In this document: positions 1-56,015 of the stretch, one piece after another
Numbering within the stretch: the stretch's first letter is position 1
Layout: each line of letters starts with the position of its first letter
From: Candidatus Micrarchaeia archaeon
Lineage (GTDB): Archaea; Micrarchaeota; Micrarchaeia; Anstonellales; Anstonellaceae
Assembly (NCBI GenBank): GCA_041663445.1
Contig: JBAYMR010000008.1
Location: 662 to 64,661 of the forward strand
DNA length: 64,000 bases
Direction: 5' to 3'
Translations under genes and position numbers: made by a program
The notes under the pieces: generated by a model
Seen by the model: only the letters and a program-made list of their open reading frames with translations
What the model was told of the DNA's origin: nothing
The model's database searches: none

Positions 1-3000
1 ACGGCATCTATTCCGACGAGTTCAACACAACAGTGAAGAACTGCAACATAAGCAACTTCGCAACTGGCATATACTTCAACGGAGCGACGAACGGCATGAT
101 ACAGAACACGAACACAAGCACAACGAAAACCGCGAGTGGAACAGACGGATATGCGATATATCTTCTCCAATCAAACAACATCACGGCAATGGGCTCAATA
201 GCAAACGCATTAGACGGCATTGGAATTTACGTCTCATCGACAAACAACAGCATAATAAGCGGCATCACCGCCACAATTGCAGGAACAACGAGCGATTACA
301 GAAATCCAATCATCTTGTACTTGACACGCAACAACATAATAGCAAACAATACCTTAAGCAACACGGGAACAATGCATAGCATAGGAGTACTTTCAAGCTC
401 AAATAACACAGTCATAAACAACACCTTTTCAAGCAGAGGCTCGCAGGCATATATAGATTCAGGCGCCTCAGGCAACACCTTCTGCCTGAACAACTTCACC
501 AGCATCGGCAACCCGACAACATACGTCCAAGACCTTAACGGCTCCAACTACTACAACTGCACCTACGCAACCAAGAACCAGGGCAACATGTATGCGAACG
601 TGATGAACGGCAGCATCCAGGTGCTGGGCACGACAGTCTCATCATTCCCAAGCCTTTACATCGGCTCTGCGGGCGCGGGCTTCCCATACAACAATTCGTC
701 TTCCGGAGGCAAGTTCGTCTGCAGCTTCGCAGGATGCGCGGACTTCGCGCCCCTCACTCCAGTCTTCCTTCTGCTCAGCACCCCATCCTCATTGGCAGTT
801 TCATCAGTCACCGACCAGCCGCTAAACTCGCAGCTCGGTGAAATGAGCCTTTCATGGGGCGCGAACAGCAACCCCGCCGGCACTGTCTACGAAGTCAACG
901 AAACAATCTCCGGCCAGACCGTCTCTTCCAGCACAGCGCTCAACTTCACGCACACCGGATTGCTTGACAACACTCAATACTGCTACAAGGTGCGCGCAAC
1001 GCTTGGCGGGCAATATTCCAACTACACATCTGCAATATGCAACATCACGTTCGACAGGACCGCGCCTGCAACTCCCAACCTGCTTCCGGGCAAGCGCGGG
1101 CTAGTCGCCTACTACAAGCTCGACGACGGAAGCGGCACGAGCGCGGCAGACAGCGCGTACAACAACACGGGTGCAGTGTCCGGCGCCACCTGGACAAGCG
1201 GCAGGGTGAACGGCGGGCTTTCATTCAACGCAGTTGACAACTATGCGTATGCAACTGTGCCTGGCATACTGACCGACCCAACAATTTCCTATACTCTTGA
1301 AAGCTGGGTGTCCCCAAGGGTAAATACCAACTCCAGCGAGCACATGGTCGTTGGCAAGGTAGGCAGGCACGGCGGCATACTGTCTACTTCGAGCAGTGGC
1401 AGCACCATTCAGTTCAGATTCCAGTATGTGAACAATGCCAGCGGATGGTTCAGCATCATAAGCAGCGCAGTTCCGCTTGACAGCTGGCATCATGTCGTGG
1501 CAACATACAACGCTACAAACAAGGAAATGAAGCTCTATGTTGACAATGTGCTCGCAGGCAGCGCCAACTTCACCGGAACTCCAACTTCATACGGCTCAAC
1601 ATTGTACCTGGGCGGCTATAGCGGGGCCACCAGCAAATACGGCTTCAACGGCTCGATTGACGAAGTGAAAATCTACAACCGCGCGCTCACCGCAACCGAA
1701 GTAGAGGAAGACTACAACAACTCCGTGGCGTACGTCAGCTTCACGGAAGGCGACAACGGCCTGCAGCTTTACATGCCGTTTGAAGAGGGCGCGGGCGCAA
1801 CGACTGCGGACTGGTCGCCAAACGCGAATGACGGCACGATAACGGGCGCGACTTGGACAAGCGGCAAGTTTGGAAACGCAATGAGTTTTGATGGCAGTGA
1901 CTATATTACTGCACCAAACAGCAGCATCCCGGTTGGAAACGCAATCACAGCCAGTTTCTGGGCATACGGCGCGGATGCCCTGCCTGCCAACACTGCGGCA
2001 ATAACCAGTTCAAACGCAGGCGGATACGTCATAAATGTCCATCTTCCTTGGAGCAATGGATTCGTATATTGGGATTGCGGTAATAATGGGGCAGCCTATG
2101 ACAGAATCTACAAAGCGGCAAATGCTTCCGATTACAAGGGAAGATGGACCTACTGGACTTTCACAAAAGACGCATCCACGGGAGAAATGAAGATATACAT
2201 TGATGGCGTGCTCTGGCACAGTGAAACCGGCAAAACAATGCCAATTCCCGCGGCAACATACCTAAGGATAGGGCAAGCATACCAAGGCAAAATAGACGAA
2301 TTGCGCATCTACAACCGCTCGCTTTCCCAGCACGAAATCATAACCGACATGCAGTCCGGGCTGATAAGCAAGGGGCTTTACAGGAGCAACACGACTACTG
2401 GCATCTACACGCCGGTGAATGGAACTTTCGAAGACTTCTCCTCCGGCAGCGACAGCGCATGGGTCAAAAACGGCGGCACCTGGAATGTAAGCGGCGGAAG
2501 CTACATATCCCCCACTTCTGGCGAAGTGGTGAGCGTAACCGGCGACCCTGCATTGGCCGACTACGTGGTGGAATCCGACTTCGAGATAGTGAGCGGCAAC
2601 CATGCCAGCCTCATCTTCCGCTCCCCCAACATCAACCAGTTCTACCAATATGAAATATACGGCGGCACCAACTCCCTCAATGGCGGCAACATCAACCTCT
2701 ACAAGTATAACTCCGGCTACTCCAACCTTGCAGTTACCGACATTGCCGACCTGAGCTACAATACCTGGTACCATGCCAAGGCAATCGTGAGCGGCAATGT
2801 CATCAAGCTGTATCTCAACGACGTGCTCCTGATGACCTATGCCGACTCGTCCTCGCCCTATCTTGCCGGCAAGGCGGGCGTGGGCACGCACTCGGCTGCC
2901 AGTATCTTCGACAACTTCAAGGTCACCCCGTTCATCTCCTCGCCCAATTACACCGACAATGGCGCGCGCGACGTTTCCGTGCCAATGACGCCAGCGCAGC

Positions 3001-6000
3001 CCACGCTCGCAAGGACATCCACTTCCACGCTCAACCTCACCTGGCTGCCCGTGGACGACACAGGCAGCACCTACTATTACTATGCAAACGCAGTTGACAG
3101 CAATGGCAACGAGGAGGATCTGCTCTACGATGGCGGGTTTGAGAAGGTATCATTGCATGGCTACTGGCTGAATGCTTCCCTGATCCAAGATGGCGCTTCG
3201 TTTGATTCCAACACAACATATTCCGGGGCATACTCCCTCAAGCAAACCGCCACCAACGGCACAAGCTGCGGAAACTGGGCGGACTGCAACAGGTACTGGG
3301 GCTCCAACTTCGGCATCGGCACGGATGTTGCGCCGAACTCGCTCTACCAGCTCAGCTGCATGGCAAAGACGCAGCTTTCCACGGGATTCGCGACGCTCTA
3401 CCTTGAACAGAACGGCACGCGCCTCTACTACGACAACCTCAACGGGACGGCGGACTGGCGCCCCATCCGCGAGGTGTTCAGGACAGGCACTACTGGCACG
3501 GTGCGCCTGCTCGCATACACCATAGGCGGCACCGGCACGGTCAATTGGGACGGCTGCGAGCTCCACATGATAAAGAACCTCACGCTGCTCTCAGGCACGC
3601 GCGACTACTGGATAAACGGCACCAATGCGAACGTGTGGTATGCCGGCACGAGCGTGACAATCTCCAACCTTGCATCCCACACCTGGTACTGTTACGCCGT
3701 CGCCCCGCGCGACATTGCGGGCAACCTGGGCGGTTACTCAGTGCCAGTCTGCAACATGACCATGAACAACCCGCCCAACATGACATCGGTAACGCTGGTG
3801 CCCTCAATCGCATACACTTCCGACCAGCTCAACGCATCTGCAACTGCTACTGACACGAACAACGATACGCTCACCTACACCTATAACTGGTACCTCAACG
3901 GCGCGCCCTATGCCTCGCTGCTCATGCCGTTTGACAACAACGTCTCGGTCAACGACACTGGCGCAATCCAGGATTACTCCGGCAACGGCAACAATGGGAC
4001 GCTCGGCGCAGGGAACGCATCGAGGATGCCCACATGGACAACTGCCGGGAAGATTGGCGGCGCGTATGCATTTGACGGGGCATCGTCATACATTTCGGCG
4101 CCAATATCCTCAGTACCGCAGGTATTCACCATCACTGCATGGATTAAATTGAACCAGCTTGGAAGGGAGCAGCATTTCGCAGAATTCACAGGCACCCAAT
4201 TCTATGTAAGCTCGGGCAACAAACTGGGCACATCTGCATGGAGCAATGCCGTTGGAACAACTTCATTGACTACTGGCACATGGTACTTTGCAACCCTTGT
4301 AAGAAATACGACCAACGTGAGCCTCTACCTCAACGGTGTATATGAAGGCGCTGGCTCGCTCGGGGCAAATGCCACAAGCCCGTTCTCAATAGGCGACTAT
4401 TATGCCCACTCCGGCAACTACAAATTCACCGGCACCATTGACCAGGTCGCAATCTACCCGCGCGCACTTTCTGCGCAGGAAATCGCGGCGCAATACGCGC
4501 TCAACTACAATGTCATGATGCCTGACGAGCTTGAAGGCGGGCAGAGCTGGAAGGTGGAAGCCACGGCATCGGACGGCTTTGACAGCTCCGCGCCCATGAA
4601 CTCCTCTACCTCAACAGTGAAGGCCGGCTGCGGAGTGCTGAAGGTGGCAAACAGGGTGGTCACGCTCGTTGAGAACCTGTCCTCCTCTGGCACATGCTTC
4701 AACGTCACCGCGCAGAACGTGACGATAAATTGCAACGGCTACAGCATAACCGGCACGAACACAACCAACACATCTGGCATCTACAGCAACCAGTTCAATA
4801 CGACAATCAAGAACTGCAACATACGCAGCTTCGGAGCGGGCATCTACTTCAGCGGGGCGACGAACGGGACAATAATCAATGACACTGTGAGCGAAACCCT
4901 GGCATATTCCGCCCCAAACGGGATGGGAATATACCTTGATTCTGGTTCCAACTACAACACAATCACCAACACCGTGAGTTCGGCGATTCGCCCGCTATTC
5001 GTCCGGTTATCTCATCACAATGCGGTTACCAACGTAACAGCAACTTCTGTCACAGACCTTGGAATATACTTTGATAACTCCCAGTACAATACTGTCACCA
5101 ACTCCACAGCAATCACTGGCTCCGGTTACGGCATCCGCTTCTCCTTGAACGCTCATAACAACAATCTCGTTGGCACAACGGCATCATCAAACACATCAAG
5201 CGCCATCTACATAAACGGCGGCTCCAACATCACGATAGACTGCCAGGGCAAGTCAATCATCGGCACGAACGTTTCCAACACCTACGGCGTCTACTCTACA
5301 GAGTTCAACACAACCGTGAAGAACTGTAATATCAGCAACTTTGATGTCGGCATCTACTTCAATAGCGCGGACAATGGCACAATGGAGAACAACACCGTGA
5401 ATGTCGGGCGGAATAATTATGTGGTGCCCCTATATTCATCTGCAATCGCTGTTTACAATGCATCCAATTACAATATGCTGCGCAACAATACAGTGTATTC
5501 CGCTTATGGAGTAGGGATTATCATATCCACCTCAAGCACAGGCAACACAATCATCAATGCAAATGCAACTGCTGTGTCAAGAGGTGCCATATCATTTGAT
5601 AACGGTGTCACTTCAAACAGCATAATCAATTCCACCGGCACTTCAGTTTCCGGCGTTGGTCTTGGTTCCTGGTACAGCTCTAACAACAACGTATCTGGCA
5701 GCACGTTCAGTTCAGGTTCGAGCTACGGAATATATCTTCTTTACAATAGCAATGGCAACATTTTCACAAATAGCACTGCCAAATCCGATTCAAACAATTC
5801 CATCCGCGTTGAGACGACTTCCAACAACAACCAATTCATCGGAACGACAACTGTGACTGGCACAAACGCCGCCAGCACCGCTTACAATATCATCGGCGGC
5901 TCCAATGTTTCCATTGACTGCCAGAGCGACAACATTGACGACCCGAGCCTGAAGCTTTACATGCCGTTCGAGGAGGGGAGCGGAACCGTTGCGCGCGACT

Positions 6001-9000
6001 GGTCAACGTACGGGAACGATGGCGCGCTTACGAGCGGAACATGGGCAAGCGGCAAATATGGCGGCGCGCTTTCGTTCAACGGGAACAACACGGCGGTGAG
6101 CGTCGGGGCGCCAGCAAGCCTGGAAGCGACTGGCGGCGTTACCCTCTCTGCATGGATTTATCCGCTGCCCCGCAATTTCACCAATAAATACTTCGGGCTG
6201 ATGGCGCCCATAATATCAAAGGGCACATGGAGCACAGTCAACTATGAATTGCAGCTATCCGAAGCCAACCAGGTTTCATTCGTGCACAGGAACAACGGGA
6301 ACCTAATATATGAAAACTTCAACCTGCCGTCATCCATCCTGAACGGCTGGCACCATGTGGCTGCGAGCGTGTGCAACAGCGTCGCGTGCAACAACACGGT
6401 GTATTTCTACCTGGATGGCGCCCTGATTGGAGGTGCGAGCGTAGCCGAAGACGGCGGCGTCCTCCCGACTGCAGGCCAGACATTCCTGGTCGGAGGCCTG
6501 GGCGGCTATGGCTTCAACGGCACCATTGACGAGGTGCGCGTGTACGACCGCGCGCTCAGTGCGGACGAGATTGCCAACGTCATGGCCGGAAGCAGGATGC
6601 TCCTTGGCACCAACACGTCCGGCACGTACGGCGTCTACTCCAACCAGCTCAACACAACCGTGAGGAACTGCGCAATCAGGAACTTCGCGTCCGGCATCTA
6701 CCTCTCGGGTGCGGATTACGGCACTATAGAGAACGTGAGCGCGAAGACAACGCGCGCGGGCGGGTATGGCGTTTACCTCAATGGCGCGGACTATGCCTCC
6801 ATAAGGAACAGCAACCTCTCAAGCGCGAATGCATCCGCGCTTTACAGCTACCTCTCCAACTACGGCACGGTGTCCGGAGGCATCTATGGCGCGGCATCTG
6901 ACGGCGTGGGAATCTACAATGCGACGGGCAATTCGATTTCCAACCTCACCATCTCCGCAGGCGGCTATGGCATTTACCTCTCGCCCTCCAGCAACAGGAC
7001 GGCGGCAACAAGCAACATGATAAATTCAACCAGCCATGGCATATTCCTCGACCAGGGCGGCAACAACAACATCTCGTTCAACGCAATCACAAGGTCTGAT
7101 GCAAACAACGGCATCCACCTCTCCTCCAGCGTGAACAACACGATTTCGAGCAATGCCATCACCGTGGCAACCGGCAAGGCAATATACATATACTACCCCG
7201 ACTCCACGGCAGGCAGCAACAACGTCACCAGCAACATTGTGACCGCCACGGGCACAGGCACCGGCATAGCGCTCGTGAACGCAAACACAAACAGCTTCAG
7301 CAACAACTATGCATCCGGCGGCGGCTACGGGATTTCGCTTGGCGGCAGCACGAACAACTCTTTCATAGGGGACACCGGCGTGGCATCCTCAGGCTCAGCC
7401 GTCGGCTTCTTCATCACCAATTCCCCTGCCAACCGCTTTGCCAACATCACGGGCATCGCCTCTTCGGGCACTGCCATGCGCCTGCAGCAGGCGTCGGACA
7501 ACAACGTGATTGAGAACGTCACGACGACCTCGACAGGCTCGGGCACAGGCATTTACGTGGACGGCGTGTCAGGCACCAACATAACCGGCATGAACCTGTC
7601 TGCCCACGGCGGCGACGCGATTTACCTCTCCTCCCTCGCGGTCAACGCGCTTTTGCAGAACGGGTCGGTTTCATCGAATGACGGGAACGGCATGACTGTC
7701 TCGGACGGCGCAACAGGCACCATAATCGCCAATGTGTCCGCATATTCCGGGCAGAAATACGGCATTTTTGTGAAAGGCAGCCCGTCGCACACTTCAATCA
7801 TCGGCGCCAACGCATCAACCGCCAGCGGCGCGGGCATCTACCTTGAGGCCACGCGCGCCAACGTCTCTGGCTCGTCGGGCACGAGCACGGGCACGGGCTA
7901 TGGGCTCAGGGTGCACGGGGGCGAGATGCTGGACATTGCGGACTCCAATTTCACATCTGCGGGAACGAGCGGCACGGGCGCATCCGCCCTATTCGAGGCG
8001 GCTTCAATCAACAACGTTGTCCGTGGCAACACATTCTCTTCGTCATCTTCCGCAGGCGACCTGCTTGTCGTATCCGAGTCGTCGGGCAACACGTTCTACT
8101 GGAATACGTTCGGCGCCACCACCGGATACTATGCAAAGGACGACGACGGGCAGTCCAACCGCTACAACGCCTCGATAGGCGGCAAGGGGGAAGGCAACAG
8201 CTGGTACAACGTGATTGCCAAGGAAGTCTCCATCTGCGGCGCGCTGAGGTCCAACAAGTCCGACTGGGCTTCCTACTACGTCGGCGCAGACTCGGTGGCC
8301 GACCCCAAGCAATACCCGTACAACGAAGTGAACGCGCGCGGCAGGCTTTCAGGCACGATTGTGGATTATGCGCCCATGAGCACGGAGCGCTGCTGGCTCC
8401 CGCAGCCCATACCCCAGAACTACACCGCCCAGGGCTGCGCCCTCAAGTCCTGCAACATTGACGATGACTGCATGAGCGGGAACGCGCCCTATTGCGATGC
8501 CGGCTGCAACCAGCTCACCCATACCTGCTACCCGTGCGTCACCTGCGAAAACGCGTACTGCCTGCCGTCAGGGCAGCCTTGCGGCGCCACGAGGGTGCTT
8601 TCAGGCTGCGGCGTTGCCACATGCAACGCAGGCGTCTGCACGAGCAGCGGCGAAACATGCCCTGGCGCATCCGGGCTCGCATGCTGCCCGTCGTCCTATT
8701 GCTCGGACAGCGGCTCTGCCAGCGTGTGCATTTCCAAGAAACTGGCCGGGGCGCCATGCGCATCCGCCTCGGAATGCGCGCCGTCCGCGCCTTATTGCAC
8801 TGGAACTCCTGCGGTCTGCAGGGCGTGCCTGCCAACCGGGACATACGGCTGCACTTCCGGCTCAGAGTGCTGCGCCAGGGCGGATGGCGCAGCCGGGCTA
8901 TGCAATCTCGCGCAAGGCACGGCTGGCGCCAACACATGCGTTGCGCTGCTGCCTGTAGGCGGCAAGACCTGCTTATCGTCCGATGACTGCGTTTCGGGCT

Positions 9001-15712: not shown

Positions 15713-16531
15713 TCAGTGCAGCCTTAACAGCATTGCAATAAGATTTCCTTTCACCAATCTCCAGTCTGATGGGCGCAGCGCCACTGGGATGAATGGGTTG
15801 GTCAGGCTTTGCAGCTTTTTTGCGTCAGCCTTTTCCACGGCAGCAATCGCCTTTTCCAAAAATTCATCCGGCGTCATTTCCTTGCCTTCGGATTCCAGCA
15901 TGTGCGCGATGGGCTGGCGCATCCTGCCGCAAAGTGGCAGCGCGGCATGGCAGTCATAAACGTCCTTTCCCTCGCACCTGTCTGCAAGCGCGCAAAGCTT
16001 CCGGGAAGTCAAGTCCTCAAGGGAATAAATCAGGAAACCCGTCACAGAGCGCTGCGAGAACAGCGAAGTTGCGGTGCCAATCGATGGCTTGGCGCTGGAA
16101 ATGATTTTTTTCGTTGAAATGTCAATCCTCACATTGTCCATGCCGCCAAGGGGCGTTTTGTAGCGGCAACAGAATTGCAGCGTTTTCCTCACCTTTCTTG
16201 CAGGCTCAACTGAATAGCCCTCAAGCGAGGATGCAATCTCCCCGCAGCGCGTGTTTATTTCAGCCAAATCCGCGCCCATGTCAAAATCCAGGTCCTCTGA
16301 GAACCTCTGCACCCCTCCTAAGTACACCTTGCTCAGCGCAGTGCCTCCCTTGAATATCATATCCTTCCTGAATTCCTCGCGCGAGCAAAGCTGCGCCAGC
16401 ACGTCCATCACGTAGAATTCCTTCACCACGAACTGCAGCGGCAGCCCATGCTGCACCGCAAGCGCGCGGCAGGCATCAATGTTTGGCGAAATCACGGATA
16501 TCCCTCCTGTTTGGCGCAAGCTTTTTTGCAT
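15713..16531 (-). CDS. AbiEii/AbiGii-family nucleotidyltransferase toxin (type IV TA / abortive infection)
   Basis: Signature MIFKGGTALSKVYLGGVQRFSEDLDFDM near the N-terminus. Lies directly downstream of, and overlapping, an AbiEi-like gene. The start is uncertain: the longest ORF reaches 16555; ATG at 16531 or GTG at 16495 are alternatives. Confidence 0.85.
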   Translation of the reverse strand: MQKSLRQTGGISVISPNIDACRALAVQHGLPLQFVVKEFYVMDVLAQLCSREEFRKDMIFKGGTALSKVYLGGVQRFSEDLDFDMGADLAEINTRCGEIASSLEGYSVEPARKVRKTLQFCCRYKTPLGGMDNVRIDISTKKIISSAKPSIGTATSLFSQRSVTGFLIYSLEDLTSRKLCALADRCEGKDVYDCHAALPLCGRMRQPIAHMLESEGKEMTPDEFLEKAIAAVEKADAKKLQSLTNPFIPVALRPSDWRLVKGNLIAMLLRLH

Positions 16532-17135
16532 AGCCTGCGAATTCCTTTTTCTCATCAGGCGAAAGCGCGCGCCACGCTTCCTCCAGCTTTTCTCTCTCCA
16601 CTGAATATCGCGGCAGGTACAAGCAGTCGAACAGCGTCTTTGCCCTAGTGGAAACTACATACGCGCCCTTTCGCTCAAAGTCAACTGCCCGCTTTCCAAG
16701 TGCAACCGCCCGAAACTCAAACTGCCCGAATCTTTTTGTTTCCGAAGTCGAAGCGGTGGCAACAATGATGGTGAATGGCATCTCAGAAACCATGCCGTGC
16801 AGGTAAAGCGCCGATGAAAACGCGAGGTAGCCATTGTAGGTTGCCTGCGCGCACGCGAATGCATCCTTCATCGGGCTGGCTGAATAGGTGCCGCGCTTGA
16901 GCCGCACAATCCTGCCCGTCTTGTTCAGGCGCGAAAGCGCAACTTTCAGCGAATCGCGCCCGCACAGGCGAAGGCTTCCCAGCATTTCCAGCGTTGCAAT
17001 CCCGTTGGGGGAAGCCTCAATGGCAGAAACCACGCGCGAAACAGCCTTTTCAGAGAACATGCTATAATAAACAATTTGTTTATTATAAGGCTTTTGGTCA
17101 AAAATGGGAAAATCGTGCAACATCGTCCGAGCCAC
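16476..17135 (-). CDS. AbiEi-family antitoxin / transcriptional regulator
   Basis: 219 aa. N-terminal wHTH-like segment ending ...LSRLNKTGRIVRLKRGTYS, as in AbiEi/COG5340 proteins. Paired with AbiEii. Confidence 0.75.
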   Translation of the reverse strand: MARTMLHDFPIFDQKPYNKQIVYYSMFSEKAVSRVVSAIEASPNGIATLEMLGSLRLCGRDSLKVALSRLNKTGRIVRLKRGTYSASPMKDAFACAQATYNGYLAFSSALYLHGMVSEMPFTIIVATASTSETKRFGQFEFRAVALGKRAVDFERKGAYVVSTRAKTLFDCLYLPRYSVEREKLEEAWRALSPDEKKEFAGYAKKLAPNRRDIRDFAKH

Positions 17136-17181: not shown

Positions 17182-19086
17182 ATGGCAAAAGTAACTCTTC
17201 CCGACGGAAAAATGCTCGATGTGCCCGCAGGCTCAACGGCAGCGGACGCAATCGGCAAGATTGGCAAGCGCCTCCTCGCGGCGACATACGCGGCGTCAAT
17301 CAATGGGAAGCAGGTTGACCTCTCTTACAAGCTGCCTGACGAGTGCACGCTCAAGGCATTCACCTACGCCTCGCCCGAAGGCAAGGAAGTATTCCTCCAT
17401 TCGGCGGCGCATTTGCTTGCAATGGCGGTGAACCGCCTTTACCCTGATGTTCTTCCGACAATCGGCCCGGTTGTGGAAGAGGGCTTTTACTACGACTTTG
17501 CCAACGCGCCCGCATTCACTCCCGGCGACTTGGAAAAAATAGAGGCAGAGATGGCGAAAATCGTTGCTGAAAACCTCCCCTTCAGGCGCGTGGAAGTGGG
17601 CAAGCAGGACGCGCTTGGGCTCTTTGCCGGCAACAAGTTCAAGCTCGAAATGGCGAACGACATCGCGGACGGCGAGCACTCCGTCTATTACACCGGCGAC
17701 AAGTGGTTCGACCTGTGCAGGGGCCCGCACGTCCCGGCGACAGGCGCGATTGCGGCATTCAAGCTCACAAAAGTCTCCTCCGCCTACTGGCGCGCGGACG
17801 CAACGAAGGACAACCTCCAGAGGATTTACGGAATCGCATTCCCTGAAAAGAAGCAGCTCGACGCCTACCTGTCGCTGCAGGAGGAGGCGGAAAAGCGCGA
17901 CCACAGGAAGCTCGGGCGCGAACTCGGGCTTTTCACGTTCCATGAATGGTCCCCGGGCAGCCCGTTCTTCCTTCCCAAGGGCACAATCATGGTGAACGAA
18001 ATACTCGCCTACCTCCGCGAGCAGTACATCAGGCGCGGCTACCAGGAAGTGGTGACGCCGCAGCTTTACAACAAGGCGCTCTGGGAGCAGTCGGGCCACT
18101 GGGGCTATTACCAGGAAAACATGTTCATCCTGAAGGTGGACGATGCCGAATACGCGCTCAAGCCGATGAACTGCCCGTCCCACATGCTCATCTACAACAT
18201 GTCATCGCACTCATACCGCGACCTTCCGCTTCGAATCGCGGACTTCTGCATGCTCCACAGGAACGAGGTGAGGGGCGCGCTTGGCGGGATGACCCGCGTG
18301 CGCAAGTTCTCGCAGGACGACGCGCACATCTTCCTTGCGCCCGAGCAGATTGGCGACGAAATAGACAGGCTGATAGACTTCACGAAATTCATCTTCATCA
18401 GCACCTTCAAGTTCGAATTCACCGCCAAGCTTTCCACCATGCCTGAAAAGCACATGGGCGAGCTGGCGCAGTGGGGCGCGGCGGAAAAATCGCTCGAGGA
18501 CGCGCTCAAGCGCAACGGGATAAAATACATCATAAATGCCGGCGACGGCGCATTCTACGGCCCCAAGATTGACTTTGACGTGAAAGACGCGCTCGGGCGC
18601 GGCTGGCAGCTTGCCACCATCCAGGTGGACTTCCAGATGCCCGCGCGCTTCCACTGCGAGTACGAGGGCGCTGACGGGCAGAGGCACACCTGCGTGGTGC
18701 TGCACCGCGCGCTCATCGGCAGCGTGGAGCGCTTCATGGGAATAATCACCGAGCATTATGCCGGCAAGTTCCCGGTCTGGCTCTCGCCGGTGCAGGTCTC
18801 GCTCCTTTCGGTCTCCGACCCCTACAACGAGTTCGTTGAATCGCTTGCCGCGCGCATGCGCGAGGGCGGCATCCGTGCAGAGGCGAACTGCAGGCAGGAG
18901 ACAATCGGCGCAAAGATACGCAGCGCGCAGCTTGAGAAAATCCCATACATGCTGGTTGTCGGACAGAAGGAGAAGGACAGCGGAAAGCTCGCCATCCGCA
19001 CGCGCGATGGGAAAGTGGAAGAGAACGTCTCAATAGACGACTTCATCGCGCGCGTGATGAAAGAGATAAATGAGCGCGCGTGCTGA
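17182..19086 (+). CDS. thrS: Threonyl-tRNA synthetase
   Basis: 634 aa. N-terminal TGS-like MAKVTLPDGKMLDV, a second additional domain, class II core (KPMNCPSHMLIY, RVRKFSQDDAHIF), and an anticodon-binding C-terminus. Confidence 0.95.
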   Translation: MAKVTLPDGKMLDVPAGSTAADAIGKIGKRLLAATYAASINGKQVDLSYKLPDECTLKAFTYASPEGKEVFLHSAAHLLAMAVNRLYPDVLPTIGPVVEEGFYYDFANAPAFTPGDLEKIEAEMAKIVAENLPFRRVEVGKQDALGLFAGNKFKLEMANDIADGEHSVYYTGDKWFDLCRGPHVPATGAIAAFKLTKVSSAYWRADATKDNLQRIYGIAFPEKKQLDAYLSLQEEAEKRDHRKLGRELGLFTFHEWSPGSPFFLPKGTIMVNEILAYLREQYIRRGYQEVVTPQLYNKALWEQSGHWGYYQENMFILKVDDAEYALKPMNCPSHMLIYNMSSHSYRDLPLRIADFCMLHRNEVRGALGGMTRVRKFSQDDAHIFLAPEQIGDEIDRLIDFTKFIFISTFKFEFTAKLSTMPEKHMGELAQWGAAEKSLEDALKRNGIKYIINAGDGAFYGPKIDFDVKDALGRGWQLATIQVDFQMPARFHCEYEGADGQRHTCVVLHRALIGSVERFMGIITEHYAGKFPVWLSPVQVSLLSVSDPYNEFVESLAARMREGGIRAEANCRQETIGAKIRSAQLEKIPYMLVVGQKEKDSGKLAIRTRDGKVEENVSIDDFIARVMKEINERAC

Positions 19087-23005: not shown

Positions 23006-23692
23006 TCAGGCAGAAGCTATCGCTTCCGCCATCTGCGTGAGCAGATTCTTCGGGTCTTTCGCCTTCACGTACGCGCTCGCAAGCAGCACGCCTTTCGCGC
23101 CAAGCTCCACTGCCTTTTTCACGTCCGATGCGCTTGAAACGCCTGCGCCGCAAAGCACCGGCGTGCCATTCACCTTTGCAACAGCCTCCACTGTCCCGCT
23201 CACCACTTCGGGCTTTGCGGTGGAAACCGAGATGCCGCTGCCGATAAGCTCCGGCGGCTCCACGGCTATGTAAGTGGGCCCGTATTTTGCCAGGCGCGCG
23301 CTTTCCTCCGCGTCCTTCGTGCAAAGCATGCTCTCCAGCCCGGCTCCCTTCAGGCGCTCAATCGTTTTCGCAATCAGTTCCTCGGGCAGCCTGTGCTCGG
23401 AGTGGTTGACAAGCGACCCCTTGCAGCCTGCTGCCTTTATTGCCTCGACGGTGAGCGTGCCCGTGAACGCGCCCTGCTCATTCGCATCTACATGCTGCGC
23501 GAAAACGTCCGTGCACGTCTGGCATGCCTCGCGTAAGTCCACCGATTGCGGCGCAACGATGATTCTCACGCCGGTAAGAAGCGACACTTCCACGGCATGC
23601 CTGCAAAGCTCGGCGCCTTTCTCGCCCAGCGACTCTGGGTAAGCCTTCAAATTCAGGGCAATTATCGGTTTCATGCTCATCACCAATGACAT
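23006..23692 (-). CDS. tpiA: Triosephosphate isomerase, short archaeal type
   Basis: About 225 aa. KPIIALNLKAY...NHSEHR...EPPELIGSG...CGAGV pattern. The start is probably at MSMKPII or MKPII. Confidence 0.9.
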   Translation of the reverse strand: MSLVMSMKPIIALNLKAYPESLGEKGAELCRHAVEVSLLTGVRIIVAPQSVDLREACQTCTDVFAQHVDANEQGAFTGTLTVEAIKAAGCKGSLVNHSEHRLPEELIAKTIERLKGAGLESMLCTKDAEESARLAKYGPTYIAVEPPELIGSGISVSTAKPEVVSGTVEAVAKVNGTPVLCGAGVSSASDVKKAVELGAKGVLLASAYVKAKDPKNLLTQMAEAIASA

Positions 23693-23803
23693 GCCGAAAT
23701 AACCTTATTAAACAATTGCCGTCTAACTGACGTTGAGGCGCCCTCCGGGCTCCAATGACCTGAAACAAGATTTGCAGATGCCGCTTTGCGGCAATCTGAA
23801 CAC

Positions 23804-23913
23804 GCCGACGTGGCAGAATCCGGTATCGCGCTAGACTCGAGATCTGATGCGGGGTTTTCCACAAGAAATCTAGTGCCCCTCGGGGCTTAGGAGTTCAAAT
23901 CTCCTCGTCGGCG
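23804..23913 (+). tRNA. tRNA-Ser (anticodon CGA) with a 26-nt intron at the canonical 37/38 position
   Basis: Acceptor GCCGACG/CGTCGGC is perfect, with discriminator G. Anticodon stem CTAGA/TCTAG forms only after removing 23842-23867. Loop CT-CGA-GA, anticodon at 23838-23840. Long variable arm TGCCCCTCGGGGCT. T arm AGGAG-TTCAAAT-CTCCT. A T6 run follows. The D stem is imperfect in my fold. Confidence 0.85.
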
Positions 23914-24170
23914 TTTTTTGCTTCCAAAAAAGCCTCCTCGGATTTTGAGCCTCCGGCTCAAAATCTCGCCGGCTTCGCCGTCGATTTCCTCGTCGGTGTT
24001 CATTTTCATTCGCGCCTCCTCAGTTTTGGCGCTTTCGCGCCAAAATCCGTCGTTGTGCTGTGGCACAACTTCGTCTCCTCGTCGGCGTTTTTTGCTTCCA
24101 AAAAAGCCTCCTCGGATTTTGAGCCTCCGGCTCAAAATCTCGCCGGCTTCGCCGTCGATTTCCTCGTCGG
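23900..24170 (+). repeat. Tandem hairpin units bounded by copies of the tRNA-Ser 3' end. 23900-23996 is repeated at 24074-24170.
   Basis: 97/97 identity by my reading. CCTCGTCGG occurs at 23903, 23988, 24077 and 24162. Perfect hairpins at 23914-23931, 23941-23965, 24024-24045 and 24053-24068, plus their copies. Confidence 0.9.
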
Positions 24171-24211
24171 CATTTTTTATTGTATTGGAAATTCTATAAA
24201 TTTCCAATAGC

Positions 24212-24239
24212 AGACAAAATCTGTCCGCAGATTTTGTCT
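24212..24239. repeat. 28-nt perfect hairpin/palindrome AGACAAAATCTG-TCCG-CAGATTTTGTCT, with a paralog at 36725-36752
   Basis: 12-bp stem. The second copy, GGACAAAGTCTG-TCCG-CAGACTTTGTCC, differs at 4 positions that form two compensatory pairs. Confidence 0.85.
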
Positions 24240-24325
24240 TTTCCAAAAATGGCGACCATTTTTCCAGCGGGAAAAATAGGGCGGCGTTTTTTATTATTCC
24301 CTTTCAATACTCCATTGGTGGTTTC

Positions 24326-24739
24326 ATGCAATCCCGCAAGGAAAAAACAGGATACTGGCTCATGCTCGGAAAAGGCGACGACGTGGTCCCCTCCATTTCC
24401 GAATGGGCGCGCAAGAACCGGATTAAGGGCGCGCAGGTGTGGGGCGTGGGCGCGGTAACCGATGCCAAGCTCGCTTGCTACTACCCGCGCTCGAAAAAAT
24501 GGAAAACCATGCCATTTTCAAGTGAAAGCTACGAGCTCCTCTCTTTCATGGGCAACATAAACGAGGACGGGCTCCACGCGCACGTCTGCATATCCGATTC
24601 CGGCTTCAGGGTATTCGGCGGGCACTTGATAAGCGCAAAAATATCCGTCTTCGGCGAATTTTTCATCCTGCCGACCTCCAAGCTTGGGAAAAAATCAGTG
24701 CCAAGCGTCGGGCTAAGAGGCATCAGCCTGGAAAAGTAG
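24326..24739 (+). CDS. PPC/DUF296-domain protein (PD1-like predicted DNA-binding protein)
   Basis: GYWLMLGKGDDVVPSISEWARKNRIKGAQVWGVGAV..YELLSFMGNI...LHAHVCISDSGFRVFGGHL...GEFFI follows the DUF296 pattern I remember. Confidence 0.75.
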   Translation: MQSRKEKTGYWLMLGKGDDVVPSISEWARKNRIKGAQVWGVGAVTDAKLACYYPRSKKWKTMPFSSESYELLSFMGNINEDGLHAHVCISDSGFRVFGGHLISAKISVFGEFFILPTSKLGKKSVPSVGLRGISLEK

Positions 24740-25238: not shown

Positions 25239-25402
25239 AGCCCCCGACGGGCGTCAAATGCGGGGCATTTGGCGCGATTTTGGCTCAATGGGCCAAAAGT
25301 CGGGCTGGCTTTCGGATGAAGTGGGAAAGCCCCCGACGAGATTTGGACTTGCGAGCATCAAAACCGAAGGTTTTGGTGCGATTTTGCGCCGAAGGCGCAA
25401 AA
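25239..25402 (-). repeat. Two hairpin units (74 and 89 nt) downstream of tRNA-Thr, each ending in a copy of the tRNA 3' end
   Basis: On the tRNA strand, the tRNA ends ...TTCAAATCCCATCGGGGGCT. Unit 1 ends TCCAAATCTCGTCGGGGGCT (rc of 25328-25347). Unit 2 ends CCCGTCGGGGGCT (rc of 25239-25251). Hairpins at 25382-25402, 25359-25375, 25278-25298 and 25255-25271. Confidence 0.85.
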
Positions 25403-25473
25403 GCCCCCGATGGGATTTGAACCCATGACATCCAGTTTACGAAACTGGCGCTCTACCGCTGAGCTACAGGGGC
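25402..25473 (-). tRNA. tRNA-Thr (anticodon CGU), no intron
   Basis: Reverse complement folds as GCCCCTG-TA-GCTC-AGCGGTA-GAGC-G-CCAGT-TTCGTAA-ACTGG-ATGTC-ATGGG-TTCAAAT-CCCAT-CGGGGGC-T. All stems pair, with one G-U in the acceptor. Confidence 0.9.
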
Positions 25474-34474: not shown

Positions 34475-35734
34475 CTAGAATTCCACCCTGTCGCAGCGCA
34501 TGTAGTCGCGCAGCGCCTTGGGCACTTCAAAGCCGTTCTCGTCCTGGTAATTTTCCATGATGGCAATCATCGTCCTGCCCACTGCAAGCCCGCTGCCGTT
34601 CAGCGTGTGCACGAACTCCGGCTTTCCCGCGCGCCTGAAGCGTATGTTCGCGCGCCTTGCCTGGAAGTCCGTGCAGTTCGAGCATGACGAAATCTCGCGG
34701 TACTTGTCCTGCGAGGGCAGCCATACCTCGATGTCATAGGTTTTCGCAGCCGAAAAGCCAAGGTCGCCGGTGCAAAGCTCAATCACGCGATATGGAAGGT
34801 CAAGCTTCTGGAGCACCGACTCCGCATCCTTTGCGAGCTTCTCCAGCTCGTGGAACGACTCTTCGGGCTTGGTGAATTTCACAAGCTCCACCTTGTCGAA
34901 CTGGTGCTGGCGCATTATGCCCTTGATGTCCTTCTGGTACGAGCCTGCCTCGCGCCTGAAGCACGTGGAATACGCGCAGAAGCCCATCGGGAGCTGCTCC
35001 TCGGCCAATATCTCCCCGGAGAACATGTTCGTGACCGGCACTTCCGCGGTTGGTATCATGTACAGGTCCTCTTCCTCTATCTTGTACTGCTCCACCGCGA
35101 ATTTCGGGAACTGCCCCGTGCCGACCATCGCCTTCCTGTTCACCATGAACGGCGGCAGCACTTCGGTGTATCCGTTCATCACCTGGAGGTCCAGCATGAA
35201 ATTTATGAGCGAGCGCTCAAGCCGCGCTGCAAGCCCCTTGAGGAAAACAAAGCGGTGCCCCGACAGCTTCGCGCCCCTCTCGAAATCAATCAGCCTCTTG
35301 TCCGCGACCTCGTAGTGGGGCTTGGCGTCCTTGCTTGTGGGCCTTGGCATGCCCCACTTGCGCACTTCCGGGTTGCTTGCCTCGTCCTTGCCAACCGGCA
35401 CGCTCTTGTCGGGGATGTTTGCAACGGTAAGGAGTATCTCGTTCATCTGCGCCTCGAGCGCATTTGCCTTCTCATCGGCTGCGGAAATGTCTGCTGCGAG
35501 CTTTTTCGTGGTGGCGAGTATCGCATCCGCGCTTTCCCCCTTTTTCTTCGCCTCTGAAATCTTCATGGACGCGGCGTTCCTCTCTGCCTTCAGGTTGTCC
35601 GCCTCGTTCTTCACCACGCGCCATTTCCTGTCAAGCTCCATGAGCGCTGATGCCGGCGCAGTGTCTGCCTGCCGTTTCCTGAGCGAGTCCTCCAGGATTG
35701 ACGGGTTTTCACGGATAAGTTTCAACGAAAGCAT
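34475..35734 (-). CDS. serS: Seryl-tRNA synthetase
   Basis: N-terminal coiled-coil arm [11 protein letters not shown]... and a class II core ([16 protein letters not shown]); 419 aa. Confidence 0.95.
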
Positions 35735-36619: not shown

Positions 36620-36658
36620 CTACCTCCATTTTTTCATTGTATATGTAAATCCTATCGG

Positions 36659-36787
36659 CATCGAGCCGCGGCTCGATGTCTGATGCATTTTGCTTCGCAA
36701 AATGCACATCGGATTTCCATATGCGGACAAAGTCTGTCCGCAGACTTTGTCCTCTGCGGGCGAAAAGGCAGAAGGGCGCAGCCCTTC
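36659..36787. repeat. Four consecutive perfect hairpins/palindromes in the spacer between the aminotransferase gene and the serA-like gene
   Basis: CATCGAGCCG/CGGCTCGATG (36659-36678, a 20-bp palindrome). TGCATTTTGC-TTC-GCAAAATGCA (36684-36706). GGACAAAGTCTG-TCCG-CAGACTTTGTCC (36725-36752). GAAGGGC-GCA-GCCCTTC (36771-36787). Confidence 0.9.
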
Positions 36788-51493: not shown

Positions 51494-51780
51494 CTTGCAG
51501 GAAGGGATATAAAATAGGCTGCTGGCATGCGCGCAGCATTCCTTCTAAGGGTTGATAATAAACGCCCGAGAGGGCGTTTGTTGGAAATCGGGCGCAGCTC
51601 CGACTTGTGCAGCAGCACAAGTGGAGCACTTGTCGGAGCGCCGACAAGTCGCTCGATTAAGAAAATAGAGGGAGATGGTACACCCGAAGGCTCCACCTCG
51701 CCTCCCACACTTCTTGCGAAGCTGGCTAAATCCCCTGCTAAAATTTATATAGGCAGATGGGCGCACGCCGGAAAATTGCG

Positions 51781-54881: not shown

Positions 54882-56015
54882 ATGAAAAACCTGCTGAGAG
54901 CCAACGGCATAATGATGCTTGCTGGGGGAACGGAAAAAATCCGCTGCCATGTCAATACCCCCGATTCGCAGAAAAAGCTTTTCCGCCGCTACGGGAAAGC
55001 GGCGCCCCACCAGCGCAAGGAGCTCGCGAAGCAGCAGCGTTTCTACCATGCGCTGCACGGGAAAGCGATGGATGTTGTCTGGGCAAAAATGCGGAACGAG
55101 AACGATGAAAGGAAGAACGGCGCCGAGCCGGCTGGCAATGCCAAAAGGAAAGGCAATGCGGAATGGAATGACCATTTTGAACGGATGGGCAATGCCGGGC
55201 AAAACTGCGGCAGCTGGAGCGAATTTTTCACCGACCCCCGCATTGATGACACCGGGAAATACAACGGCGTAAATTGCAAGTTCCTGGGGCACATCTCCAA
55301 GTTCATGAAAAAGCCGATGGTAACCGACATCTTCGCTGTTCGCCGCAAAATGTGGGCAATCGCGCTCAAAATGAAGGACGGCAGCATTCCGGCGAGCGCC
55401 GAAAAGACATTCAACCAGCTCATGCAGCTTTCCATCCGCGTCAAGCACTGGCTGCTTGAGGACAAGATAACGCTTTACTACAAGGAAGTGGATGGCAAAA
55501 AGATACTCGGCTTTGATTTTGTGAACCATGACGGCTCAAAAGGCGGCTTTGTCAATGCGAAATGCCATTTCCACGGCGCAGGCAGGATATGGATATCCGA
55601 AAAAAGCCTGGTGCTTGGCGAAGCGGTATTCGCGGGCAATGTTACGCTGCGCTGCTCCACAATCCATAGCGGCCGTTTCGAGGATGTTGATGCCTATGCT
55701 TCGGTGTTTTCAACAATAGATGCGCACGCCTGCAAATTCGACCATGTAATTTGCCACGAGGTTTATCTTACGGATTCGAATTTTGACCATTGCACTGTCA
55801 AGAGGTCCACCCTTGCAAGATGCTCCGGGGACAATTCCGTTATCCTGGACACAAAAGACCACGACAAGAAGTTCAGGGATGTAACCCGGGAGTGGAATCA
55901 GGTCAGCGCACGCCCCCCTCGGAAACTTTTCCGGTCTTTACAGGGGCGCCCGCCACAAGCAGCTTCCTGCCATTCGCAAGCGCATGGAAATCCTTCACTT
56001 CCAGCTTCACAGTGA
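54882..56015 (+). CDS. Orphan hypothetical protein. Its last 113 nt overlap the 3' end of metG on the opposite strand.
   Basis: AT-richer ORF with a plausible amino acid composition. TATA-like GCTTATAAATTT (54849-54860) lies about 27 nt before the ATG at 54882. The C-terminal third has a repetitive short-strand pattern (VLGEAVFAGNVTLRCSTIHSGRFEDVDAYASVFSTIDAHACKFDHVICHEVYLTDSNFDHCTVKRSTL). No family recognised. Confidence 0.55.
   Translation: MKNLLRANGIMMLAGGTEKIRCHVNTPDSQKKLFRRYGKAAPHQRKELAKQQRFYHALHGKAMDVVWAKMRNENDERKNGAEPAGNAKRKGNAEWNDHFERMGNAGQNCGSWSEFFTDPRIDDTGKYNGVNCKFLGHISKFMKKPMVTDIFAVRRKMWAIALKMKDGSIPASAEKTFNQLMQLSIRVKHWLLEDKITLYYKEVDGKKILGFDFVNHDGSKGGFVNAKCHFHGAGRIWISEKSLVLGEAVFAGNVTLRCSTIHSGRFEDVDAYASVFSTIDAHACKFDHVICHEVYLTDSNFDHCTVKRSTLARCSGDNSVILDTKDHDKKFRDVTREWNQVSARPPRKLFRSLQGRPPQAASCHSQAHGNPSLPASQ

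Follow-up and report, generated by a model that had tools for sequence, protein, structure and literature searches.

The 64,000-nt stretch analyzed here (positions 662 to 64,661 of contig JBAYMR010000008.1 of a Candidatus Micrarchaeia archaeon, hereafter the window) carries a tRNA-Ser(CGA) gene followed by a short array of palindrome-rich units, each ending in a copy of the 3′ end of that tRNA. This array is not a one-off, as it is a member of a cassette family that trails tRNA-Ser and tRNA-Thr genes across a lineage of Micrarchaeia, and it most likely grew by slippage at the DNA level rather than through a virus, a transposase or a gene. The repeated tRNA tail, designated E2, consists of T60, the 3′ strand of the T stem, the 3′ strand of the acceptor stem and the discriminator base G73 (TCTCCTCGTCGGCG).

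In an Rfam scan of the window, a tRNA was placed at 23804-23913 on the plus strand (RF00005, 41.5 bits). ARAGORN named it tRNA-Ser(CGA) with a 26-nt intron in the anticodon loop, only when introns were allowed; with default settings the gene was missed. This single intron lies at about 23842-23867, its placement being ambiguous by a few nucleotides, and a T-loop intron is absent. On one side of the surrounding region 23700-24330 lies the gene for triose-phosphate isomerase (minus strand, 23006-23692), on the other a plus-strand gene with a PCC domain (24326-24739). As the tRNA is complete before the first cassette begins, the cassettes lie outside the mature tRNA sequence. Three copies of its last 12 to 14 nt follow at spacings of 85, 89 and 85 nt, with 71 to 75 nt between copies. 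The order is tRNA (with its own E2), U1, E2′, U2, E2, U1, E2″ and then a hairpin-rich degenerate unit:

23804-23913, plus strand: tRNA-Ser(CGA) gene (Rfam RF00005; ARAGORN with introns allowed; orthologue alignment)
23900-23913, plus strand: E2, the tRNA's own tail, TCTCCTCGTCGGCG, invariant in 33 related tRNA-Ser loci
23914-23984, plus strand: cassette U1, copy a, 95-96% identical to both tandem units of locus L125
23914-23931, plus strand: T6/A6 hairpin of U1a
23932-23941, plus strand: box of U1a, GCCTCCTCGG
23941-23965, plus strand: hairpin A of U1a, GATTTTGAGCC-TCC-GGCTCAAAATC
23976-23984, plus strand: near-complement of E2 in U1a, CGCCGTCGA
23985-23998, plus strand: E2′, TTTCCTCGTCGGTG, matching E2 at 12/14 positions and able to pair with the preceding CGCCGTCGA
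23999-24073, plus strand: cassette U2, of canonical plan with a T-rich leader; nearest relatives L120_Sb and L096_S
24013-24023, plus strand: box of U2, CGCCTCCTCAG
24024-24045, plus strand: hairpin A of U2, TTTTGGCGC-TTTC-GCGCCAAAA, followed by the linker TCCGTCG
24053-24068, plus strand: hairpin B of U2, TTGTGC-TGTG-GCACAA
24074-24087, plus strand: exact copy of E2 (14/14), the start of the second 97-nt repeat
24088-24158, plus strand: cassette U1, copy b, identical to copy a (97/97 repeat)
24159-24172, plus strand: terminal copy E2″, TTTCCTCGTCGGCA, followed by a run of six T
24173-24295, plus strand: degenerate terminal unit with perfect hairpins at 24183-24209, 24212-24239, 24245-24263 and 24258-24277

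The original prediction, made from the letters of this DNA, had described most of this layout, and its observations were borne out. The last 14 nt of the tRNA recur as E2 copies at 23985, 24074 and 24159, and the 9-mer CCTCGTCGG is present at 23903, 23988, 24077 and 24162; it occurs six times in the whole window against 0.53 expected, a count reached in 0 of 100 shuffles. Positions 23900-23996 are repeated exactly at 24074-24170 (97/97), all four perfect hairpins proposed between the tail copies are present, and the two unit types, described as diverged versions of one plan, both belong to one cassette family. Tandem Repeats Finder reported a period of 174 nt over 23900-24225. Identity with the first 97-nt repeat stops after GG, that is, within E2″. 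In the terminal unit, which by eye is homologous to the end of the L124 array, a fifth, degenerate E2 copy (CGGCG plus six T, 24282-24292) lies beyond three further hairpins. The T/A-rich stretch of 24173-24295 is, in addition, the probable site of the promoter for the PCC-domain gene starting at 24326.

The array (259 nt) folds better than its shuffles on both strands (z = -9.8 for the plus strand, -8.5 for the minus strand), and in the window as a whole perfect hairpins with a stem of 8 bp or more number 27, compared with 5.1 in shuffles. Perfect hairpins of 8-9 bp also cluster, two to three at a time, at 46920-46966 and 51560-51649. The entire intergenic region is identical in an independent ENA assembly (L001), so an artefact of a single assembly is unlikely; a third assembly, the Logan contig L002, breaks inside the repeat.

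Relatives were sampled as 80 loci from a protein-guided scan of GTDB genomes and 38 more found in metagenomes with the conserved 5′ part of this tRNA-Ser as query; loci are referred to by L numbers. E2 was invariant in 33 distinct tRNA-Ser(CGA) loci of related Micrarchaeia. Seven of these, the window included, carry one to three extra downstream copies in units of 65-96 nt, and the other 26 have no cassette. The seven arrays are as follows:

L096: 1 extra E2, spacing 96 nt
L098: 1 extra E2, spacing 93 nt
L100: 2 extra E2, spacing 81 and 81 nt, units identical
L124: 2 extra E2, spacing 65 and 80 nt
L125: 2 extra E2, spacing 85 and 85 nt, units identical and 95-96% identical to U1 of the window
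L120: 3 extra E2, spacing 80, 80 and 94 nt, first two units identical
Window: 3 extra E2, spacing 85, 89 and 85 nt

In the window and in all related loci, the left edge of each tRNA-Ser E2 copy is exactly T60, the last base of the T loop. The closest syntenic relative, L093, has no cassette, and only about 30 nt separate its tRNA from the PCC gene. When tRNA-Ser and tRNA-Thr loci are taken together, the copy number across related Micrarchaeia ranges from 0 to 3 or more.

All units follow a common plan, in which a T-rich leader is followed by a box (CGCCTCCTCGG or CGCCTGACGAGG), hairpin A, a linker that often reads CCGTCG, a variable hairpin B and E2. Hairpin A has a conserved base (TTTTG...CAAAATC) and a variable top. 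MAFFT plus RNAalifold gave no consensus structure for the units; since MAFFT loses the register of stems of variable length, the stems were parsed by hand and their pairs counted in Python. Across 15 units, 223 of 224 stem cells were Watson-Crick pairs and none was a G-T wobble, with three to four pair types at most positions, and both strands fold equally well. Many loops read GC-TTC-GC, so that the other strand reads GCGAAGC, a very stable DNA mini-hairpin, and the tRNA-sense strand of L120 and L124 has C(UUCG)G loops.

The minimum-energy fold was the same Y-shape in 12 of 15 distinct units, the box pairing with the terminal E2 and enclosing hairpins A and B. This closing helix comprises 11 bp in L120, L124 and L096_T and 6-8 bp in L117, L113, L008, L021 and L003. 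A well-preserved box is the reverse complement of E2 and equals the 5′ strand of the tRNA acceptor stem together with part of that of the T stem, so that the unit resembles an acceptor/T-arm "top half" in which two hairpins replace the T loop. The box matches its own E2 both for tRNA-Ser in L120 and L124 and for the two acceptor variants of tRNA-Thr, GGAGG and GGGGG. In U1 of the window, CGCCGTCGA stands directly before E2′ and gives a rearranged 9-bp hairpin with one T-T mismatch. With Rfam 15 only the two tRNAs passed the threshold, and a permissive scan of 23700-24400 yielded only sub-threshold matches at chance level.

The second of these tRNAs is a tRNA-Thr about 1.2 kb from the tRNA-Ser array, which carries the same kind of trailer; neither this trailer nor the spread of the phenomenon across the lineage had been noticed in the original prediction:

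25402-25473, minus strand: tRNA-Thr(CGT) gene (ARAGORN; Rfam 72.9 bits)
25239-25401, minus strand: two trailer cassettes of the same family behind tRNA-Thr
25328-25401, minus strand: cassette T1, ending in TCGTCGGGGGCT (25328-25339)
25239-25327, minus strand: cassette T2, ending in CCGTCGGGGGCT (25239-25250)

Arrays were found at 8 of 16 tRNA-Thr(CGT) loci. At least one tRNA-Thr unit is present in the relatives L003, L008, L021, L113, L096, L116 and L117, and also behind tRNA-Thr(TGT) of L116. Each tail copy matches its own tRNA-Thr: genomes with a GGAGG acceptor have GGAGG copies and those with GGGGG have GGGGG copies. The cores of Ser and Thr cassettes are 70-90% alike, and the L096_S and L096_T cores, from one genome, are reciprocal best partners. 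The first tRNA-Thr trailer copy of the window ends in CAAATCTCGTCGGGGGCT, the allele of the relatives L003 and L008, while the T stem of the window's own tRNA reads CCCAT; the copy thus preserves an older or foreign allele. In L116 (3456-3729 and 1-458), the units of tRNA-Thr(CGT) and tRNA-Thr(TGT) are partial tRNA 3′ copies that include the T-stem 5′ strand and the T loop, and both trailers carry a T-loop insertion sharing the hairpin TGGAGCGG-AACG-CCGCTCCA. The copy number in L116 is an underestimate, as the contig ends within an array of identical units.

How far tail recurrence extends was measured with the terminal 12-mers of 104 non-redundant tRNAs, allowing at most one mismatch within 400 nt. 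The 3′ 12-mer recurred downstream for 15 of 104 tRNAs and upstream for none, with about 0.09 downstream cases calculated to occur by chance; the 5′ 12-mer recurred upstream for two tRNAs, both from L023, and downstream for none. By group, recurrence was seen for 13/31 in the close clade, 3/47 in other Micrarchaeota (tRNA-Gly in L032 and L041, tRNA-Ser in L022) and 0/29 in other archaea. Behind tRNA-Gly(TCC) of L032 (12662-12950), the 3′ end of the gene occurs twice more as an exact copy; the second of these takes in all of the 3′ exon together with the 3′ portion of the anticodon-loop intron, and the spacers are homologous to the intron. A mirror image was seen in L023, one of the distant Micrarchaeia, where the first 12-18 nt of a tRNA are copied upstream of it (tRNA-Thr, 6361-6620; tRNA-Arg, 640-897). 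The tRNA-Arg copies there include the promoter region, and at both tRNAs CCCTTTTTCTTT..AAAGAAAAAGG hairpin modules separate the copies from the gene.

Signals for transcription termination differ between the loci. Of the 26 tRNA-Ser loci with a single copy, 21 have at least five T in a row no farther than 14 nt from E2, and some of the other five (L092, L106, L119) directly precede a tRNA-Thr gene in the same orientation. In L096, L120 and L124, T5-T6 follows the terminal E2 copy and runs of five T or more are missing after the internal ones; the tRNA-Thr unit of L008 is followed by T7. Because a T-run terminator thus stands after the last E2, the cassettes in these four loci probably lie within the tRNA transcription unit. 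In the window and in L125, six T follow directly after each exact E2, so transcription there probably stops mostly at the tRNA; in the window, the run of six T behind the tRNA suggests that the cassettes are reached by read-through only. The spacers between tRNA-Ser and a tRNA-Thr in the same orientation (L119, L092/L108, L094, L106), 60-230 nt long, are full of perfect hairpins and contain no E2 copies, so that hairpin modules populate every discarded part of tRNA transcripts, namely spacers, introns and trailers.

The reading that we favor is that of a lineage-specific palindromic cassette of the DNA level which is bracketed by copies of the tRNA 3′ strand, gains and loses units by slipped-strand or unequal exchange at E2, has its cores exchanged between trailers and is probably transcribed only passively. 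We put this forward tentatively, its chances as a whole being a little short of even; it does not imply an essential function. Growth and shrinkage of the arrays by slipped-strand or unequal exchange follows directly from the identity of neighboring units, the differences in copy number and the repeat junction inside E2. Unequal exchange between short repeats had been one of three options of the original prediction, and it is well supported by the identical tandem units in L100, L120, L125 and L116, by the range of 0 to 3 copies among relatives and by the position of the repeat edge. Some spread or exchange must also exist, because cassette cores are common to tRNA-Ser and tRNA-Thr trailers.

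As a possible course of events, the first E2 copy may have arisen from an old partial duplication of the top-half strands of the tRNA; a partial tandem duplication of the 3′ portion of the gene as starting point is suggested by the larger tRNA pieces kept in L116 and L032. The array would then expand and contract via slipped-strand mispairing or unequal recombination at the E2 copies. Hairpins between direct repeats favor slippage, and those of the cassette may do so by bringing the E2 copies together. The palindromes and the complementarity of E2 and box might be kept perfect by intra-strand template switching (quasi-palindrome correction) and not by selection on an RNA; such switching would copy a change in E2 into the box, and then from the box into the distal E2. 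Upkeep of this kind is suggested by stems that are free of wobble pairs and have a conserved base and a fast-changing top, and by boxes that track the acceptor sequence of the tRNA. Within one genome, gene conversion or template switching may swap cores from one tRNA trailer to another, for which TCGTCGG, common to tRNA-Ser E2 and the tRNA-Thr copies, could serve as microhomology. In several relatives the cassettes would probably be transcribed as a tRNA trailer and discarded by 3′ processing.

Several points weigh against this reading. The origin of the first E2 copy and its sharp left boundary (T60 or C61) match no observed intermediate. The postulated template-switch correction is deduced from the absence of wobble pairs, and the match of box and E2 that tracks each tRNA's acceptor is also expected from selection on an RNA helix. 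In the window itself this match is poor: the boxes (GCCTCCTCGG/AG) pair weakly with E2, and the closing helix of U2 and its nearest relatives has only 4 bp (CGCC:GGCG), no better than with shuffled boxes. The differences in copy number rest on relatives that are 70-90% identical in DNA, a distance above strain level. Finally, the tRNA-Thr cassette is kept at the same place and is recognizable in L003, L008, L021 and L113 amid intergenic DNA that is unalignable by eye, whereas decay would be expected of purely neutral DNA.

A functional structured RNA is an unlikely explanation that nevertheless deserves serious consideration. Each cassette would imitate the top half of the tRNA, with box and E2 forming an acceptor-like helix that ends at the discriminator and with hairpins A and B in place of the T loop. 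RNase P and RNase Z would cut the precursor into RNAs of about 55-75 nt, possibly CCA-tailed, that might serve as processing punctuation, as a decoy for factors binding acceptor ends or in another role. The common Y-shape in 12 of 15 unit folds fits this idea, as do the conserved position of the tRNA-Thr cassette across several species, the T-run terminators after the terminal E2 in L096, L120, L124 and L008 and the C(UUCG)G loops on the tRNA-sense strand. That closing stems of 7-11 bp (L120, L124, L096, L117, L113, L008 and L003) fit the unit's own tRNA and not the other one also speaks for an RNA, although it is not decisive, as palindrome correction at the DNA level would give the same pattern. 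Selection on an RNA is harder to reconcile with 223 stem pairs that include no G-U, when the acceptor stem of tRNA-Thr itself has one, and with a patchy distribution in which 26 of 33 tRNA-Ser loci lack the cassette. No Rfam family matched, and the boxes of the window pair with E2 by only 4 bp, no better than shuffled ones. For the window, the small-RNA array with an acceptor-strand mimic, another option of the original prediction, is weakened by the lack of G-U pairs and by the six T right after the tRNA, which recur after each exact E2 there and in L125.

A bolder version, which we regard as rather improbable, is that the tRNA-Ser and tRNA-Thr genes are polycistronic with one to several purposely made top-half mimics or, in a related form, that hairpin modules and duplicated exon ends are the raw material of T-loop introns. 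Such mimics would be released and tailed by RNase P, RNase Z and the CCA-adding enzyme, as the closing helix copies the acceptor stem and ends at its discriminator. Possible roles are processing punctuation or that of a decoy for the acceptor end; a conceivable opponent is a toxin that modifies tRNA ends, such as the AbiEii/MenT-type nucleotidyltransferase whose gene lies 8 kb away.

A non-autonomous mobile element is an explanation for which we see little likelihood. In this case a core resembling a miniature inverted-repeat transposable element (MITE) or a palindrome-associated transposable element (PATE) would be mobilized in trans, target tRNA 3′ ends or T loops and duplicate the 3′ strand of its target, and the presence of one core family behind different tRNAs, with ends matched to the host tRNA, is what such an element would produce. 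The original prediction had listed MITE-like hairpin elements as an option. In the strict sense this is not supported, as the unit ends (CGTTTTTTGC... and ...GCCGTCGATTT) form no inverted repeat, the stretch of tRNA that is duplicated has 12, 14, 24 or >60 nt depending on the locus, unlike a target-site duplication, and canonical units were found only in tRNA trailers; the part that stands is some spread or exchange, seen in the cores shared by Ser and Thr. The proposal had also raised the question of whether copies sit away from tRNAs, and among the sampled loci the canonical cassette was found solely in tRNA trailers. A search of these loci, as distinct from whole genomes, gave 21 candidate pairs of hairpins A and B, of which 11 are followed by a sequence repeated just upstream; aside from about three non-canonical pairs (two in L104, one in L061), the remaining candidates lie by inspection in or next to tRNA genes or introns. 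No other copy of the cassette was found within the 64-kb window, nor was a transposase.

A separate element in the same genomes does appear clearly mobile and counts in favor of mobility in general, as does the growth of T-loop introns through insertion of similar hairpin modules. It is a 53-nt double-hairpin module (AGCATCGAGC..GCTCGATG TCTGA TGCATTTTGC..GCAAAATGCA CATC) that is nearly unchanged in three unrelated contexts:

36658-36712 of the window: non-tRNA intergenic region
about 893-945 of L003: tRNA-Thr trailer, within the loop of a trailer hairpin
L111: T-loop intron of tRNA-Ser, with the empty site seen in L101

The module has subterminal hairpins and inserts directly after ..TC without target duplication, in the manner of a PATE (a miniature element of the IS200/IS605 type), and therefore does not explain E2. 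The cassette itself, unlike a PATE, is flanked by E2 repeats, and no Y1 or OrfB transposase is encoded in the window.

Integration scars are very unlikely. Viruses or plasmids would have entered the tRNA 3′ end repeatedly, duplicating the core of the attachment (att) site each time, and would later have been deleted to about 70 nt. An intact tRNA gene with direct repeats of its 3′ part behind it is the classical mark of integration (PMC9897764), and CAAATCTCGTCGGGGGCT in the window's first tRNA-Thr copy is what a displaced older 3′ end would look like. The scar idea was rejected, since in 126 loci paired E2 copies were never found on opposite strands or at a distance above 400 nt and no integrase or transposase domain was detected in the 36 open reading frames (ORFs) of the window or in the annotated neighbors, results that uphold the original prediction's dismissal of a classical tRNA-integrated element. 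When IMG/VR was scanned for the hairpin, the tRNA end and the E2...E2 pattern, no viral contig matched; only exact matching was used, so distant attP sites could be missed. Moreover, the intervals are homologous cassettes and not random remnants. The crossover in att sublocations reportedly lies in the anticodon loop, the T loop or the 3′ end of the tRNA (as ascribed to Williams, 2002); here the identity block begins after the T loop, and a T-loop crossover would put the T loop in the repeat. A clustered regularly interspaced short palindromic repeats (CRISPR) array had likewise been dismissed at the outset, and rightly so: the repeat has only 12-14 nt, the would-be spacers are themselves repeated (97/97) and homologous between loci, and the window encodes no cas domains.

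Still less credible is an optional intron with alternative 3′ exons, in which the tRNA body is joined to a distal E2 while the splicing endonuclease removes the proximal E2 and the cassette at 59/60, the arrays being intermediates in the gain or loss of T-loop introns. Every tRNA-Ser E2 copy does begin at position 60, most relatives have a T-loop intron in the same tRNA, the L116 units are partial tRNA 3′ copies with a T-loop insertion, and introns at 59/60 are known in Micrarchaeum (PMC3239211). The T-loop introns of the relatives (L003, L008, L009, L010, L021, L088, L097-L117 and others) are second introns of 57-233 nt in tRNA-Ser(CGA). They form one homologous family (5′ TTCAA|T(G/C)CC.., 3′ ..GAAC|AAATCTCC) that lengthens by insertion of hairpin modules of the TTTTTGCC..GGCAAAAA type, and ARAGORN and Rfam miss the tRNA-Ser genes that bear them. 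This family differs in sequence from the cassettes and, given that the 3′ exon begins with AAATCTCC, sits at 56/57 to 58/59. Some loci with arrays have a T-loop intron and others lack it; a true one coexists with the array in L098, L100 and L125. Coexistence and the difference in sequence family also led us to reject the idea of an ex-intron, that is, a displaced T-loop intron with its old 3′ exon. In the central helix of a bulge-helix-bulge motif, intron bases at the 5′ site pair with exon bases at the 3′ site; going by this geometry, the sequences at the two putative splice sites of a cassette are unsuited, being identical and not complementary. In no relative is the cassette used as an intron.

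A protein-coding repeat is effectively refuted: the 119-codon ORF through the array (23887-24246, minus strand) is open throughout and the 174-nt period equals 58 codons, but it overlaps the tRNA gene, the periods of related arrays (65, 80, 81, 85, 93, 94 and 96 nt) mostly break the frame, with those of 65, 80, 85 and 94 nt shifting it from one identical unit to the next, base composition alone keeps three or four of the six frames open, and the region is wholly absent from the closest syntenic relative, so on grounds of frame and position we judged it not to be a gene for a small repeat protein.

Compared with known systems, the arrays share with att-derived tRNA fragments of viruses, plasmids and islands the intact tRNA gene, the downstream copies of its 3′ part and the ability of copies to keep an older allele. 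They differ in spacing (65-96 nt instead of kilobases), in the lack of an integrase, in intervals that are conserved, structured and tandemly amplified, in a repeat (T60-G73) that excludes the T loop and in their occurrence in many species at the same two tRNAs. Like minisatellites that grow by slippage, they have head-to-tail units, identical neighbors and copy numbers that differ between relatives; unlike those, their boundaries are anchored on the last 14 nt of a functional gene and the unit family is common to two tRNA genes. Plant mitochondrial t-elements, mimics of the type of MALAT1-associated small cytoplasmic RNA (mascRNA) and minihelices likewise have a small unit beside a tRNA closed by an acceptor-strand helix that ends at the discriminator, whereas the cassettes have no equivalent of a T loop or D arm and no G-U pairs, and the closing helix in the window has 4-9 bp.

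PATEs are described in Haloquadratum as MITE-like derivatives of IS200/IS605 (PMC3119063). They and the bacterial repetitive extragenic palindromes (REP) and bacterial interspersed mosaic elements (BIME) resemble the cassettes as short DNA palindromes, perfect or nearly so, with a conserved base and a variable top that cluster in intergenic DNA or discarded parts of transcripts; the canonical cassette differs in being seen solely behind tRNAs and bracketed by direct repeats of 12-14 nt of the tRNA end, with no RAYT or TnpA seen. The non-canonical tRNA introns of Micrarchaeum and other archaeal Richmond Mine acidophilic nanoorganisms (ARMAN), located in the T loop or at 53/54 and 59/60, are processed by an epsilon2 splicing endonuclease (PMC3239211). 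They come from the same lineage and the same tRNA, and those in the T loop are hairpin-rich inserts that abut the T-loop/T-stem boundary and grow by insertion of hairpin modules. The cassettes, by contrast, lie outside the mature tRNA, need no splicing and belong to a different sequence family, and a bulge-helix-bulge motif cannot obtain its central helix from their direct repeats.

No archaeal element of this architecture was found in the open-access literature, in line with the original prediction, and tandem cassettes that end in the 3′ strand of their host tRNA are apparently undescribed there. They would combine known kinds of processes and elements, namely partial duplication of a tRNA gene, slippage repeats and palindromic modules. 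Archaeal tRNA genes are disrupted by introns, splits and integrating elements, and the origin of such insertions is an old open question. In Micrarchaeia, members of the DPANN archaea, tRNA genes are trailed by a conserved cassette that copies the 3′ strand of the tRNA and often its complement too, and its presence across the lineage at two specific tRNAs is possibly linked to the origin of the odd tRNA introns of these organisms. If the cassettes are only DNA-level repeats, they offer a clean natural case in which an essential gene anchors slippage and template switching, and a practical hazard as well, given that default ARAGORN missed the tRNA and assembly L002 ends inside the repeat. If they are expressed top-half mimics or precursors of T-loop introns, they would represent a new class of tRNA-linked RNA, and the origin of non-canonical introns would become directly testable; should hairpin modules and duplicated exon ends feed T-loop introns, a pathway of archaeal tRNA intron gain would be visible.

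Some other genes of the window may be mentioned. A gene for a nucleotidyltransferase toxin of the AbiEii/DUF1814 family lies at 15713-16555 on the minus strand (Pfam PF08843, E = 5.7e-22). MenT toxins, relatives of this family, modify tRNA acceptor ends, notably those of tRNA-Ser; the location of the gene 8 kb from the acceptor-strand repeats is probably a coincidence. The same 64 kb that contain tRNA-Thr and tRNA-Ser also encode threonyl-, seryl- and methionyl-tRNA synthetases (17182-19086, 34475-35734 and 55903-58107, respectively). A giant ORF of 3918 amino acids (33-11789, plus strand) with six Laminin_G_3 stretches and beta-helix/NosD repeats probably encodes a surface protein and is followed at 11836-15689 by T2SSE/T2SSF genes of a type IV pilus-like system.

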